NCBI GenBank assembly: GCA_964596525.1
Contig: CAZQUL010000001.1
Location: 396,830 to 460,829 of the forward strand
Direction of reading: 5' to 3'
Source: an uncultured Gammaproteobacteria bacterium
GTDB taxonomy: Bacteria; Patescibacteriota; Patescibacteriia; Magasanikbacterales; GWA2-37-8
DNA length: 64,000 nucleotides
The translations under genes were made by a program, and so were the position numbers. How positions within the stretch are numbered: the first letter of the stretch is position 1; each line of letters starts with the position of its first letter. Below are positions 59,998 to 63,323 of this stretch, one piece after another. The notes under the pieces were generated by a model, which worked only from the letters and a program-made list of their open reading frames with translations, was not told the origin of the DNA and did not search any database.

Positions 59998-60285
59998 AAG
60001 CTTTTTGTGAAACTAGAATATATTTCTATCAGAGTGCGGGGTGGAAGTCAAGTTTTGGGTTGGGGAAGAGGGGATTAGGGACTAGTGATGAGGAATTTAG
60101 TCAAACTAATCTTAATTTATAAAATTTTGCTGAATTTCCTTATTCTTATCCACACAAAACCCTTTACACCTTTTTTGAATGAAGTACTCTTGGTCGCACG
60201 AGGGGTGAGCTGTCGTGCGCGTCGACAGTTTTTTGTTCCTCTGAAACGCAATCTTTTTAGTTGGAGATTGAAAAAAGGAGTCCCC

Positions 60286-61383
60286 ATGACCACTCTCAGG
60301 TCGTTCCTTGTTGAAGGTCAATCGTCAAAGTCGGTGGTGGTCGCACCCCCACTTCCCAGTGAACATCGCTCTTTTTGGCCCGTTGCTAATAAGGAGATAC
60401 TTTGGGGTTGGAAAAGAGATGCTCAATGTCAAAGCCGAGTTGTCTATTTTTCAGGTCGTCTAGAAATGCTTGAACAAGGTATTTCGGTCGCTGATAGCTT
60501 TTTCTTTTATCAGCACAAGACCAATCGATTGGCTGCGGACCTGCTTGGTGCCCAGCTTACAGCGGCTATTGCTGGTATCAAAGATTTTTTGGCCCAACGT
60601 CGTCTTGAGGTCAAAAGTCTTGATAGATCCTCAAGTATTGTTAGGTTTAAATTTGGAGTGCCTCGCACTTTGGATTTGGACCGTGTCACTCGACTCCTAA
60701 TGCGCCGTCCCCGGAGGAAGGCGCAAACGTCAACCCTTCCTTCGACAGAACCTGTCGTTGAAGCAGTTGTGGATCTGTTGCCTGCAGACGTATATCTTGG
60801 TTCGGGTGTATCCTATGAAGCAGGGTTGCCCACCCTCTGTGAAGTCCATGATTATTTTTGTCTTGATAACAGGGCAGAAACAGGATTCACCTTCGGTGTT
60901 GCGGATGAACTGCCTGCATGGTTAGAAAAGAATCCGTTGGCCGTACTCAAGAATTTCTGTTCTCTCCACACCAAGGCACTCGTTGCTCCCCCTACGCCTG
61001 CGCAACGTTTTGTTGCCGAGTTGTGGAGTAAGGGTCTTGTTAGACAAGTTCTTAGTGATAACGTAGATAACTTGTTATGCAAGGTCAATGTTCCTTTTGA
61101 GAGAACTCGAGGAAGCGGGGTCTTTAACGAACGTTTCCCCGTTCGTTTTCTCACCAGGGCACTGCTAGTTGTTGGAGTAGCTGCGGATCGAAGAGAAATA
61201 ATCCGACAGGCTCGTGGCAAACGGATGCAGGTGATAGTAGTCGATCCTTGCGCTAAAGTTTCCCACGGTGTGCAGCATCTGAACTTCCTAAGGTCAGGCG
61301 ATGTGTTTTTCCGCCTTACTGCCGAACAGTTCTTTGGCAGGCTGTATAATGCTCTTAGGGCTAGGAGCGGTTATGGAGTCTGA
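60286..61383 (+). CDS. divergent SIR2-like (DHS-like NAD-binding fold) protein with an unknown N-terminal domain
   Basis: AAGGAG SD then ATG. VYLGSGVSYEAGLPTL matches the Sir2 GAGIS..GIP.F Rossmann motif. PTPAQRFVAELWSKGLVRQVLSDNVDNLL matches P.aH..la.L...G.l..viTQNIDgL. No Zn-ribbon Cys4 and no catalytic HG. Confidence 0.5.
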   Translation: MTTLRSFLVEGQSSKSVVVAPPLPSEHRSFWPVANKEILWGWKRDAQCQSRVVYFSGRLEMLEQGISVADSFFFYQHKTNRLAADLLGAQLTAAIAGIKDFLAQRRLEVKSLDRSSSIVRFKFGVPRTLDLDRVTRLLMRRPRRKAQTSTLPSTEPVVEAVVDLLPADVYLGSGVSYEAGLPTLCEVHDYFCLDNRAETGFTFGVADELPAWLEKNPLAVLKNFCSLHTKALVAPPTPAQRFVAELWSKGLVRQVLSDNVDNLLCKVNVPFERTRGSGVFNERFPVRFLTRALLVVGVAADRREIIRQARGKRMQVIVVDPCAKVSHGVQHLNFLRSGDVFFRLTAEQFFGRLYNALRARSGYGV

Positions 61384-61906
61384 GCTTCGCGCCTTCCGAA
61401 ACAACTATCGAACGGCTCGCAGTCGTCTCTTGTCGGACATTGATGGTCTAACCGTGGAAGCTCTAGACTGGCAAATCACCCCGGGCCTAATTACAATTGG
61501 CACATCCCTCCTTCACATCATTGGCTTTGAGCGCATGCTTATTGCCGCTGTTGAGGGTTGCGATGTCCGACTGATAATAAAGCAACCGGAGTGGCTGGTA
61601 TTTGCCCCAGGTTTCCGTCGCCTGCTTCCCACCTCCCATCCAACCTCGTTCCCGCTTAGCTTTTATGTCGATTTGCTAACTAAGCAGGAACAGATAACCT
61701 GGAATTTTCTTGGGAAAATGTCGGATAGAATTATGAGTGCACGCTCAAAATTCTATGCCGATAATAAGCTGTTTCAGGATAGTGGGCTTGAAGACAGAGA
61801 GAATCGACAGCTGCTGAGTGCTTTATTGCAACACGAGCAGTACCATCGTGGGCAAATTACGCTCCTTAAGTACCTGTTCCTTCGTGCAACAGAAAAAAGT
61901 TCCTAA
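61373..61906 (+). CDS. DinB/YfiT-like (DUF664) four-helix-bundle metalloprotein
   Basis: Start MESELRAF overlaps the upstream stop by 11 nt (AGGAG SD inside the upstream gene). C-terminal HEQYHRGQI motif. Confidence 0.5.
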   Translation: MESELRAFRNNYRTARSRLLSDIDGLTVEALDWQITPGLITIGTSLLHIIGFERMLIAAVEGCDVRLIIKQPEWLVFAPGFRRLLPTSHPTSFPLSFYVDLLTKQEQITWNFLGKMSDRIMSARSKFYADNKLFQDSGLEDRENRQLLSALLQHEQYHRGQITLLKYLFLRATEKSS

Positions 61907-61950
61907 TAGGCCATCTTGCCTGGTTTGTGCCAGATTGCCTTTTCTAAAAT

Positions 61951-62829
61951 ATGTCCCCTTCACCCGCTCGTACCATCCTCATTCTCGGTGCCTCAAGTTG
62001 GATTGGTCATTATCTGACAGGTGAATTGCATACCATAACGACCGATATCCCGGTTAAAATTATCGGGACTTTCTGCGCCAATAAACCGGCGAAACCGGAT
62101 GACGTATTTCCATTTGATTTTCGAGCTCCGGCTTCCTTATTTTCTTTTCTTGCTGATAGTAGGCCTGATATAGTCATAAATCTCCTGGGAGGTGTTGACG
62201 AATCTTTGTTTCAGTTCAACAGGAAGCTTGCAGGCATCCTGGCGGAAAATGATTCGCATCATGTTTTTATGTCTTCATCCATGGTTTTCGATGGCAGAGC
62301 GAATCAGCCGCATACCGAAACGGACGTTACGCAAGGGAAAAGTGATTATGGCGTTTTTAAAGCCCGCTGTGAAGAAGTAGTGCGGTCGGTAGCCGGGGAT
62401 TATTCTATTGTCCGTATTTCTGCTGTTCACGGATTTGCACCGAACAAAATTTCCAGAACCGAGCGTTTCCTTAAACGATTGGCTCAAAACGAAATTATCG
62501 AAGTAGATAGCGGAGTTTTTCAAAATAGATTGTCCATAGCTCAGATGTCTAAAATGCTTGCGGCTCTTGTTATTACTTCGGCTCAAGGTATTTTCCACCT
62601 GGGCACTAGTGATCAGAGTGAGGAGATAGATTTTTTAGGAAGGATGGCGGAAATTTTTGGTTATTCGCGCACTCAACTAGTAGTTAAACCCGCGCCGGCG
62701 AAGTATCTGACGGTTATCCCGAATAATATTTTTAACGTGGTAGGGGATGGTTTTAAACGAACAGAACTCGATACGCTCCATGAAATTAGAGCCTTGCCGG
62801 AATTTCAAAAATACAAACGCACGGTTTAG
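61951..62829 (+). CDS. SDR-family NAD(P)-binding protein (RmlD/dTDP-4-dehydrorhamnose reductase-like)
   Basis: ILILGASSWIGHYL Rossmann motif. Approximately 290 aa, typical of RmlD-like reductases. Confidence 0.55.
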   Translation: MSPSPARTILILGASSWIGHYLTGELHTITTDIPVKIIGTFCANKPAKPDDVFPFDFRAPASLFSFLADSRPDIVINLLGGVDESLFQFNRKLAGILAENDSHHVFMSSSMVFDGRANQPHTETDVTQGKSDYGVFKARCEEVVRSVAGDYSIVRISAVHGFAPNKISRTERFLKRLAQNEIIEVDSGVFQNRLSIAQMSKMLAALVITSAQGIFHLGTSDQSEEIDFLGRMAEIFGYSRTQLVVKPAPAKYLTVIPNNIFNVVGDGFKRTELDTLHEIRALPEFQKYKRTV

Positions 62830-62840
62830 ATAGAGCCTCC

Positions 62841-62923
62841 GTCATTGCGAGCCTGCCTACCGCAGGCAGGCTTGTCTGTCGTTAGACAGGGAGGGACCCG
62901 CCGCGGTGGGTTCTCGCAATGAC
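62841..62923 (+). mobile_element. 83-nt palindromic element, copy 3 (variant core, same TIRs)
   Basis: CGTCATTGCGAG...CTCGCAATGAC termini. Three internal hairpins (GCCTGCCTACCGCAGGCAGGC, GTCTGTCGTTAGACAGG, ACCCGCCGCGGTGGGT). Confidence 0.6.
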
Positions 62924-63323
62924 AAAGGTTTTGTCTGAAGTAGTAGGCAGATGCCAACTTGTCCACTGCCATTTTCTTGACACTATCGCCAAAATTTTGT
63001 ATTACACCTCTACCTTTACCCCGTGGCACGTACTCTCCGGCGCGATTATCGCCCGGCGGGTTCGTCAACAAAGCAGAGTCAAAAACGCAAGGAAGCTCGC
63101 TTTGGCCACCTAATTTCCCTTCGGATGTCGTCCTTGCTTGCCCAAAGGTAACGAATACAAACCGCTCACCCCCGGTTTTAGTTTTGTTTTATTTCAGGTT
63201 GTGGGATGGAAAGGCGGGTGGTTAAAGGAATGGCAGAATAGTTGCGGCGTATGAAGTAGGTTTTTATCGCTAAAAAGCGATGAGCACGTACTTTATACGC
63301 TAACCTTAAACGGTGTTCTTCGT

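Follow-up and report, generated by a model that had tools for sequence, protein, structure and literature searches.

The locus

We describe here a three-gene cassette from a 64,000-nucleotide stretch (the window) of contig CAZQUL010000001.1, which derives from an uncultured bacterium of the Magasanikbacterales (Patescibacteriota; the candidate phyla radiation, CPR). The cassette fills the interval between a tRNA gene and rpoB, referred to as the island. Its first gene, A, encodes a sirtuin-like protein of an unnamed family, B a DinB-like protein, and C an RmlD-like extended short-chain dehydrogenase/reductase (SDR). The elements that define the locus are the following.

59925-59997, minus strand: tRNA-Glu(UUC) (ARAGORN; Rfam tRNA model, 64 bits), left edge of the island
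59998-63323: the island, the interval between tRNA-Glu and rpoB, with the three co-oriented genes A, B and C
60286-61383, plus strand: gene A, two-domain sirtuin-like protein, 365 amino acids (aa), AAGGAG upstream
60286-60744, plus strand: N-terminal alpha/beta domain of A, aa 1-153, no known fold matches
60760-61383, plus strand: sirtuin-fold Rossmann domain of A, aa about 159-365, no zinc (Zn)-binding insert
61373-61906, plus strand: gene B, DinB-like, 177 aa, AGGAG 5 nt upstream of its ATG
61951-62829, plus strand: gene C, RmlD-like extended SDR, 292 aa
63324-64000, plus strand: start of rpoB, right edge and outside the cassette (assigned by translation and homologues)

A preliminary description of this DNA had placed a three-gene island between tRNA-Glu and rpoB, and its boundaries indeed fall at 59997/59998 and 63323/63324. 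On the left, the island borders on the 5' side of the tRNA gene and not on its 3' side. For gene A, the short start is preferred over a 432-aa open reading frame (ORF) beginning with GTG, as the N termini of homologues agree with it; the protein has 365 aa, not the 366 given before. The ATG of B and the TGA of A overlap by 11 nt, exactly as had been read.

Sequence and fold of protein A

The window copy of A has no Pfam match at E<1, and no curated family of Pfam, NCBIfam or PADLOC covers it. The weak sequence matches that it does have are all to Sir2—the NCBIfam CobB model at E 5.7e-5 (22.5 bits against a cut-off of 320) and Sir2Af2 in the PDB at E 0.009—and they span aa 166-268 only. Among its relatives, P0136 and P0140 score 24.0 and 23.2 bits against PF02146, the cut-off of which is 24. 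A structural model calculated with AlphaFold2 on a 92-sequence alignment (pLDDT 92.8, pTM 0.91) displays a sirtuin-type Rossmann fold; the fold match is strong, and the best matches are sirtuins. Lower matches comprise domain III of transhydrogenase (dIII; 12.8), SirTM (11.7), the SIR2 domain of Avs5 (9.0), ThsA (8.5), deoxyhypusine synthase (DHS; 8.1) and PsSIR2 (7.9).

The Rossmann domain bears four conserved motifs: GSGVSYEAGLPTLC (aa 172-185), DNVDN (258-262), RTRGSGVFNE (273-282) and VGVAADRR (295-303). Within the dinucleotide loop, G172, S173, G174 and S176 as well as Y177 and E178 are invariant in the 92 sequences; so are D258, N259 and D261 of the pocket motif. Loop and pocket motif both align to their counterparts in CobB and Sir2Af2. 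Judged by these motifs, A keeps the GSGxS dinucleotide loop and the N-x-D nicotinamide-pocket motif of sirtuins. Further invariant positions lie near the register of the catalytic histidine (R273, R275, G276, G278, V279, N281, E282) and in the last motif (G297, V298, A300, D301, R302, R303).

Two hallmarks of sirtuins are missing. No His occurs in A between DNVDNL and VGVAADRR; an invariant R-T-R-G-S is found in the x-x-H-G-S register instead, and Arg275 would hence take the place of the sirtuin catalytic His by motif register rather than by structural superposition. This assignment stays motif-based because the hhalign profile alignment to Escherichia coli CobB ends at aa 268. The Cys4 Zn module is likewise missing, with just 16 Cys-free residues (aa 276-291) between the two core strands. 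A degenerate Sir2 half without Zn ribbon and catalytic His had been anticipated; the fold model bears out the Sir2 half, and the alignment the lack of the two features.

The N-terminal domain carries an invariant W-G-W-(K)-R-(D) motif at aa 40-45. Here, W40, G41, W42 and R44 are invariant, as is R51 further on, and K43 and D45 are found in at least 90% of the sequences. A basic RLxxRRPR linker at aa 136-143 is also conserved. The model predicts the fold of this domain with confidence, although no known fold matches it.

Proteins B and C

The earlier assignments of B and C both hold. B exceeds the cut-offs of two Pfam models, DinB (28.4 bits, cut-off 23) and DinB_2 (28.2 bits, cut-off 24.8), and its His triad—the His of LLH at about aa 48 and the HExYH pair at about aa 153 and 157—is invariant in 10 cassette copies. 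The best PDB match reaches E 0.0096 over 23 residues. By these signatures, B is a DinB-family protein resembling four-helix-bundle metalloenzymes.

C matches RmlD_sub_bind (PF04321) at E 2.6e-16, with 60 bits against a cut-off of 27, and Epimerase at E 5.5e-10. Its nearest solved structures are RmlD 1vl0 (E 2.7e-6) and MAT2B. On TIGR01214, the RmlD equivalog model, it scores 66 bits, far under the cut-off of 224; hence, C is not an RmlD equivalog. Neither rmlA, rmlB nor rmlC is found near the cassette in the 64-kb window. The window copy bears a Gly-rich GxxGxxG loop (GASSWIG), an SSxxVF segment (SSSMVF) and a YxxxK motif (YGVFK). Conservation extends to the Gly-rich loop, the S-x-x-VF segment and the Tyr, but family-wide not to the Lys of YxxxK. 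This Lys is kept in the window, in loci L024 and L033 (locus numbers are our own), in the Chloroflexia copies and in the Streptomyces copy; most copies from proteobacteria and actinobacteria have Gln in its place, or else Leu, His or Ala (L004, L005, L008, L009, L011, L012, L021, L025, L026, L028 and L029). Going by this residue, many C partners may be atypical, possibly non-redox SDRs.

Gene linkage and spread of family A

For the analysis of gene linkage, 60 loci, 45 of them distinct, were assembled from GTDB genomes, JGI, ENA and Logan contigs and scored with hidden Markov models (HMMs) derived from the B and C proteins of this cassette. A gene for C lies within 1.2 kb of A, or is fused to it, at 26 of the 45 loci, and at 24 of the 32 whose upstream side is readable; in most cases the A and C genes share a few bases. 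B adjoins A at 17 of the 45 loci. A glycosyltransferase gene of family GT4 follows directly 3' of A at seven of the 45, often in B's place, a GT2-like gene follows A-C at three to four loci, and a NUDIX gene is adjacent at four. The commonest gene order is C-A-B; C-A-GT4, A-B-C (the window, L024/L037, L033 and L068), B-C-A and A-C-GT2 also occur. In addition, A is found fused to an SDR in both orders (P0113, SDR+A; P0136, A+SDR) and to a GT4 domain (P0150, A+GT4), and a member of the sister family described below to a NUDIX domain (P0189).

From these linkage counts and independent fusions it follows that A and C are the functional pair, with B as a frequent but facultative third member. The preliminary description had considered A and B a functional pair and had made this dependent on their synteny in other genomes. 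B does recur next to A and is coupled to it here, but A-B is syntenic in a minority of loci and the core partner is C. The A-B translational coupling in the window is hence real, yet not a defining feature of the family.

A profile search of 1.84 billion cluster representatives returned 226 proteins of family A at E<=1e-3, 55 of them at E<=1e-30, and a word-indexed search of 5.8 billion clusters returned 152 matches, nearly all annotated as 'hypothetical'. Members are about 345-375 aa long. Genome matches are scattered over Actinomycetota (Solirubrobacterales), alpha-, beta- and deltaproteobacteria, Cyanobacteria, Chloroflexia, Phycisphaerales (Planctomycetota) and archaea; DNA of plasmid-like or conjugative character carries some of the copies (L003, L032). 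A sister family of about 400-415 aa is alignable over the Sir2 half only, at about 30% identity; a plasmid search found this sister family only, on linear plasmids of Streptomyces and Kitasatospora. No copy of family A occurs among the 2.9 million viral contigs of IMG/VR, and a viral origin of the family, which was considered, was rejected for want of any relative there.

Full-text literature searches turned up no account of a coupling between a sirtuin-like protein and genes of the RmlD-like, DinB or glycosyltransferase kind, and likewise none linked with nucleotide sugars or ADP-ribitol. The 'DinB' of one defence paper that was retrieved is an unrelated TerB protein. A survey of systems based on nicotinamide adenine dinucleotide (NAD) and ADP-ribose lists sirtuins in cobalamin synthesis, deacylation, toxin-antitoxin systems, defence and RNA repair, and the context of family A is not among them (PMC9503650).

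Wider gene neighbourhoods

Precomputed Pfam annotation displays sugar-related genes around several copies of A. Locus L025 bears Bac_transf, GT2, Alg14 with a GT28 C-terminal domain, and GT4; L026 a dTDP-sugar isomerase and GT2; L028 an NTP-transferase and an epimerase; and L029 two GT4 genes directly downstream of A. At L024, a UDP-glucose/GDP-mannose dehydrogenase and a NUDIX gene are found, at L027 (Burkholderia sp. TSV86) a NUDIX gene and a class-III aminotransferase, and at L003, on plasmid-like DNA, a NUDIX gene upstream.

Two loci (L032 3119-13017 and L010 4092-12692) place A in a conserved cluster next to TraG. This cluster encodes NAMPT, a CYTH protein, an O-methyltransferase, A, an NDK-like (kinase-like) protein, NUDIX, a polyketide cyclase, an SDR, DUF6001, DUF6031, an acyl carrier protein and a ketosynthase, and may be a natural-product cluster using an NAD-derived unit. 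NAMPT salvages nicotinamide.

The sister family occurs in an operon of its own on plasmids of Streptomyces sp. NA02950 (L030 5110-10507) and Kitasatospora purpeofusca (L031 5092-9351). This operon consists of a class-III aminotransferase, the sister protein (about 415 aa, 'hypothetical' in all copies), a UDP-glucose/GDP-mannose dehydrogenase, a GNAT protein and an RmlD-like 'sugar nucleotide-binding protein'. The Burkholderia aminotransferase is a close relative of the one in this operon (E 1e-182). A gene of the 2H (2'-5' RNA ligase) family lies beside the Streptomyces operon.

When 138 ORFs neighbouring A at 17 further loci were pooled and scanned with Pfam, the outcome was heterogeneous: Glyoxalase and Methyltransf_25 each occur in three members, and NAPRTase, Amino_oxidase, UGDH, GT2, Polysacc_synt, VWA_2, TetR_N and GNAT in two members each. 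The glycan association of family A is real, not universal.

The same neighbourhoods were searched for defence genes. PADLOC has one match on A, to the candidate PDC-S65 (E 5.8e-5), which is confined to the 21 residues 170-190 of the GSG loop; B and C have none. Its matches among the 138 neighbour ORFs are almost only singletons, with mad2 (two members) as the one recurrent family, and those among 46 ORFs from loci without C are again almost only singletons. GajB/UvrD-type matches in L021 stem from a housekeeping-type PcrA/UvrD helicase. The sensor and partner modules SLOG, TIR ThsB, HerA, pAgo and STAND occur neither in A nor in the genes adjoining it at the loci examined. Macro, GcvH and LplA are found neither in any annotated locus nor in the top 25 recurrent neighbour Pfam families.

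As a separate observation, one of the 138 neighbour ORFs (L004-L023) matches ThsB (TIR-like, E 2.4e-30) and another PDC-S66 (E 2e-78). These two ORFs are found neither in the loci without C nor among ten immediate neighbours checked with Pfam.

Proposed function of the cassette

We lean, by a narrow balance of probability, toward reading A-B-C as a self-contained, horizontally acquired metabolic cassette for NAD-dependent ribosyl or nucleotide-sugar chemistry and not as an immune system. A small-molecule modification cassette had been the second option of the preliminary description, and it is the option favoured by the glycan, nucleotide-sugar and NAD-salvage contexts and by the SDR and GT4 fusions.

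In this scheme, A would bind NAD+, or nicotinamide mononucleotide (NMN), in a sirtuin-like manner and cleave the nicotinamide-ribosyl bond; the retained N-x-D pocket together with the occasional NAMPT and NUDIX linkage suggests that NAD+ (or NMN) is consumed and nicotinamide released. It would then transfer ADP-ribose or a ribosyl group, with a small molecule, a sugar or water as the acceptor, like the His-less SirTM and unlike deacylases. The product, an ADP-ribose derivative and hence a nucleoside diphosphate (NDP)-sugar, would be taken up by C, which would oxidise, reduce or epimerise the sugar. Since ADP-ribose and its conjugates are NDP-sugars, the kind of ligand that suits an RmlD-type SDR, the A-C fusions would be explained. 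B, with its intact His triad, might contribute a third, metal-dependent tailoring step, hydrolysis or thiol transfer for instance. Attachment of the product to a glycan would then fall to a GT4 or GT2 enzyme in other genomes; the end product here may be a soluble metabolite, as no glycosyltransferase is near in the window. A further-reaching claim is that family A is a new functional sirtuin class (Zn-less, Arg for His, with a new substrate-binding N-terminal domain). Its members would draw a ribosyl or ADP-ribosyl group from NAD+ for the biosynthesis of small molecules or glycans, and a dedicated RmlD-like SDR, followed by a glycosyltransferase, would take over their NDP-sugar-like product. 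This claim is put forward tentatively, with the chances well against it.

Several points weigh against this scheme. NAD+ binding and nicotinamide cleavage by A are predicted from motifs only, and the alignment to sirtuins stops after DNVDNL, so that Arg275 is placed by motif register (RTRGS against xxHGS). C is missing in about a quarter of the assessable loci, and in most proteobacteria it is possibly no conventional reductase because the Lys of YxxxK is Gln. The pooled Pfam tally is heterogeneous, with glycan families at about two of 17 loci each; no glycosyltransferase or sugar-activation gene is adjacent to the cassette in the window; and it is not obvious how partners acting on hexose nucleotides, UDP-glucose dehydrogenase among them, would fit an ADP-ribose substrate.

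It is this last point that a redox role of A would explain better, since UDP-sugar dehydrogenase neighbours imply hexose nucleotides rather than ADP-ribose. Here, A would hold a tightly bound NAD as hydride cofactor—compare transhydrogenase domain III and deoxyhypusine synthase, which share the fold—and oxidise a nucleotide-sugar hydroxyl to a ketone, which C would reduce (a net epimerisation) or a class-III aminotransferase, like the one of the Streptomyces sister operon, would aminate. The aminotransferase neighbours, too, are better accounted for in this way. The operon logic of dehydrogenase, A-like protein, aminotransferase, GNAT and SDR does resemble amino-sugar pathways. However, A keeps the sirtuin-specific N-x-D motif and the GSGxS loop, its best fold matches are sirtuins and not dIII or DHS, SDRs epimerise by oxidation and reduction on their own without need of a separate sirtuin-fold oxidase, and the NAMPT and NUDIX linkage fits consumption of NAD better than its catalytic use. 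We therefore regard this role as unlikely. Slightly less credence still is given to anti-phage defence or a toxin, with A as a regulated NADase like ThsA, DSR or SIR2-HerA and B or C as sensor or antitoxin, a form of which—a two-gene NAD-targeting module—was the preferred idea of the preliminary description. A has a SIR2 fold without Zn ribbon, as defence SIR2s do; the cassette is compact, patchy and compositionally atypical here, and some of its copies reside on plasmid-like or conjugative DNA (L003, L032); NAMPT and NUDIX neighbours are also known in NAD conflicts; and there are the weak match to candidate PDC-S65 (E 5.8e-5) and the ThsB-TIR match in one of 138 neighbour ORFs. That PADLOC match, though, covers 21 residues of the GSG loop only, and the defence-HMM matches of the neighbours are almost all singletons, the UvrD-type one in L021 being a housekeeping helicase. 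None of the sensor domains SLOG, STAND, HerA and pAgo was found in A, nor a TIR gene next to it at the loci examined, and A lacks the His needed by the ThsA and DSR NADases. It is fused to SDR and GT4, which are biosynthetic enzymes; no copy is found among the 2.9 million viral contigs; and the GC content of the cassette is like that of its flanks in most hosts. The defence idea was thus not sustained: with no defence HMM membership, sensor or TIR partner or defence-island context, with the His missing, with biosynthetic fusions and with a fold nearer to classical sirtuins, it is disfavoured.

The two remaining explanations carry far less weight. In nucleotide or RNA-end processing, A would act like KptA/Tpt1 or the phage 'RNA-repair sirtuins' and transfer ADP-ribose to a phosphate, in concert with NUDIX, kinase-like and 2H enzymes. 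Neighbourhoods of sirtuin, 2H, Nudix and kinase genes are predicted RNA-repair systems (PMC9503650), NUDIX and NDK-like genes adjoin A in L032, L010 and L027, a 2H gene stands beside the Streptomyces sister operon, and the N-terminal domain and linker of A are rich in invariant Arg and Lys. These partners are confined to a minority of loci, however, while the dominant ones are the RmlD-like SDR, DinB and glycosyltransferases, and no ligase, PIN or endoRNase gene is linked, which makes this role highly improbable. An ordinary CobB-type protein deacylase or regulator, finally, is the least probable of all, even though NCBIfam CobB and PDB Sir2 are the sole sequence matches of A: the score lies far under the cut-off (22.5 against 320 bits), the Zn module is missing, an extra conserved domain of 150 aa is present and the gene context differs; and because the catalytic His is missing, the deacylase reading is effectively refuted already.

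Bacterial sirtuin-fold proteins have so far been sorted as deacylases, SirTM-type protein ADP-ribosylases and anti-phage NADases, and family A fits none of these classes. CobB-type sirtuins are also credited with phosphoribosyl transfer in cobalamin synthesis (PMC9503650). If the further-reaching claim made above is true, cells would have a hitherto unrecognised way of drawing on NAD+ for a sugar unit, to be built into surface glycans or a soluble metabolite. If A uses NAD+ as a substrate, this would link NAD metabolism to the sugar chemistry of glycans and natural products and add an Arg-for-His catalytic solution to the sirtuin repertoire. In the CPR host, the metabolism of which is very limited, it stands as a case of a probable tailoring cassette gained by lateral transfer. 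More generally, a degenerate SIR2 beside a small gene calls for a synteny check before it is scored as defence.

Composition and probable horizontal origin

The island has a GC content of 46.6% against 52.0% for the rest of the 64 kb, the lowest of all 3326-bp windows (z about -3.6). It had been called markedly AT-rich: the direction is right, but with a shift of about 5 points the compositional deviation is real yet modest. The GC content at third codon positions (GC3) is 0.40 in C and 0.42 in A, at or below the minimum of the 54 other ORFs (mean 0.575, sd 0.087), and the synonymous-codon likelihood z is -2.3 for A, -1.7 for B and -0.9 for C, low in the first two and less so in the third.

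Atypical composition of the cassette and the patchy distribution of family A both fit horizontal acquisition, as had been suggested. This is backed by the absence of the cassette upstream of rpoB in the nearest relatives and by the island-like GC content of the most similar A-B-C cassettes (L024 and L033, 48-50%). In most host genomes, cassette and flanks are alike in GC. Neither the ORF list nor a repeat scan of the window revealed an integrase ORF or a tRNA-derived flanking direct repeat at the island. Classical tRNA-linked integration was rejected, as there is no integrase, there are no direct repeats, and the contact is with the 5' side of the tRNA.

Further features of the island and the window

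Besides the genes, the island and the rest of the window contain the following elements.

59998-60285, plus strand: AT-rich leader or promoter region of the cassette, 39.6% GC
60098-60125, plus strand: promoter-like site in the leader (sequence scan)
60207-60231, plus strand: weak hairpin with T-run in the leader, between the promoter-like site and the ribosome-binding site of gene A
62825-62939: palindromic repeat directly after the stop of C, an inverted repeat with arms GTCATTGCGAG / CTCGCAATGAC; fold -72.9 kcal/mol, z -9.9
63159-63178, plus strand: terminator-like hairpin with T-run in the spacer before rpoB (consensus scan only)
34751-34867: element with the same arms, just upstream of ileS
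35641-35757: element with the same arms, inside the ileS ORF (34879-37914); the in-frame copy is also delimited as 35617-35757

A riboswitch or attenuator in the leader of A was considered and rejected: the leader folds no better than shuffled sequences do (z -0.67), neither L024 nor L033 conserves it, and Rfam gives no match.

The palindromic element after C may act as a terminator. Its 11-nt arms, GTCATTGCGAG and CTCGCAATGAC, delimit three such elements in the window, where 1.6 single-arm matches are expected by chance; the interior of the island copy differs from those of the other two. The ileS copy is read in frame as ...SVIASEAKQSPESTSGSVSTVGSENEGIASSSATLRPRNDG..., and in-frame reading within genes is the defining behaviour of Rickettsia-type palindromic elements (RPEs). 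We hence describe the family as REP (repetitive extragenic palindrome)- or RPE-like and the ileS copy as an RPE-like in-frame insertion into an essential gene. An RPE-like element had been taken to mark the distal edge of the island. The repeat is present at that place, but since elements with the same arms occur elsewhere in the window, it is a dispersed repeat and not an island-specific edge marker.

As to the host, the N terminus of RpoB is 70-73% identical to that of Candidatus Magasanikbacteria and about 65% to that of Uhrbacteria, among other Patescibacteria. The lineage appears isolated, as the nearest HolA homologue is just 31% identical. At the two closest rpoB loci (RpoB 77% and 73% identical), ftsK, HAD and other genes lie upstream of rpoB, and neither rplJ/rplL, nor a tRNA, nor the A-B-C cassette is found there. 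The statement that the island interrupts a ribosomal-protein context hence had to be dropped for this lineage.

Some observations concern other genes. Here, rpoB (L001 3362-6487) is a single ORF of at least 1042 aa, while in the nearest relatives (L035 4917-8345 and L036 8001-11428) it is called as two ORFs of 278-310 aa and 835-843 aa; part of the lineage could have an rpoB that is split or frameshifted, unless the assemblies are in error. Two long ORFs of the window, 900 aa at 12798-15500 and 445 aa at 29279-30616 (both minus strand), have no Pfam match at E<=1e-5. The ORF at 42198-43466 (plus strand) combines ATP-grasp_2 with an ATP-citrate-lyase citrate-binding domain; its product is a succinyl-CoA synthetase beta subunit or else resembles ATP-citrate lyase, in both cases notable for a small CPR genome.

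Comparison with known systems

B shares the four-helix-bundle signature and the invariant His triad with the metal-dependent thiol transferases of the DinB/YfiT/MST type, but is very divergent, has no thiol-biosynthesis context and is facultative in its cassette. C resembles RmlD (dTDP-4-dehydrorhamnose reductase) and MAT2B-type SDRs in its RmlD substrate-binding domain, its GxxGxxG and SSxxVFxG motifs and, here, its YxxxK. It differs from RmlD in scoring under the equivalog cut-off (66 against 224 bits), in having no rmlA/B/C nearby, in the replacement of Lys by Gln in many orthologues and in being coupled or fused to a sirtuin-like protein.

With the defence SIR2 NADases (Thoeris ThsA, DSR1/2, SIR2-HerA, SPARSA, Avs5; PDC-S65), A has in common a SIR2 Rossmann core without Zn ribbon and a patchy, mobile distribution. 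Defence SIR2s, however, keep and need the catalytic His, which A is without, and carry or pair with SLOG, TIR, HerA, pAgo or STAND modules, whereas A stands beside sugar-metabolism genes and has none of these.

The class M sirtuins offer another parallel. SirTM has no catalytic His—Gln137 is found instead, acting with Arg192—and is an ADP-ribosyltransferase, not a deacylase (PMC4518038). Like SirTM (SpySirTM, PDB 5a3a), A combines the missing His with a conserved Arg in the active-site region. Yet SirTM keeps its Zn domain and exchanges His for Gln, whereas A has no Zn domain and exchanges His for Arg, so the likeness is one of mechanism only. Moreover, SirTM is paired with a macrodomain and a GcvH-L/LplA2 operon, neither of which is seen at the annotated loci of A.

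Classical sirtuins (Sir2Af1/Af2, Sir2Tm, CobB, SIRT1-7; PF02146) share with A the GxGxS loop, the (Q/D)N(I/V)D pocket motif, a GxS/A-type strand and the final xxN/D strand. In A, however, 16 residues stand in place of the Zn module with its Cys4 ribbon, an invariant Arg replaces the His, and the FR of GIPxFR gives way to an invariant L and a nearly invariant C. A also has an extra conserved N-terminal domain of 150 aa without known fold, the window protein as such has no Pfam match, and the genomic context is one of SDR, DinB and glycosyltransferase genes rather than of acyl-CoA synthetase or regulation. Hence, we place A within the sirtuin superfamily as a protein with a new architecture—a new N-terminal domain, no Zn module, and Arg for His—and a new genomic context.

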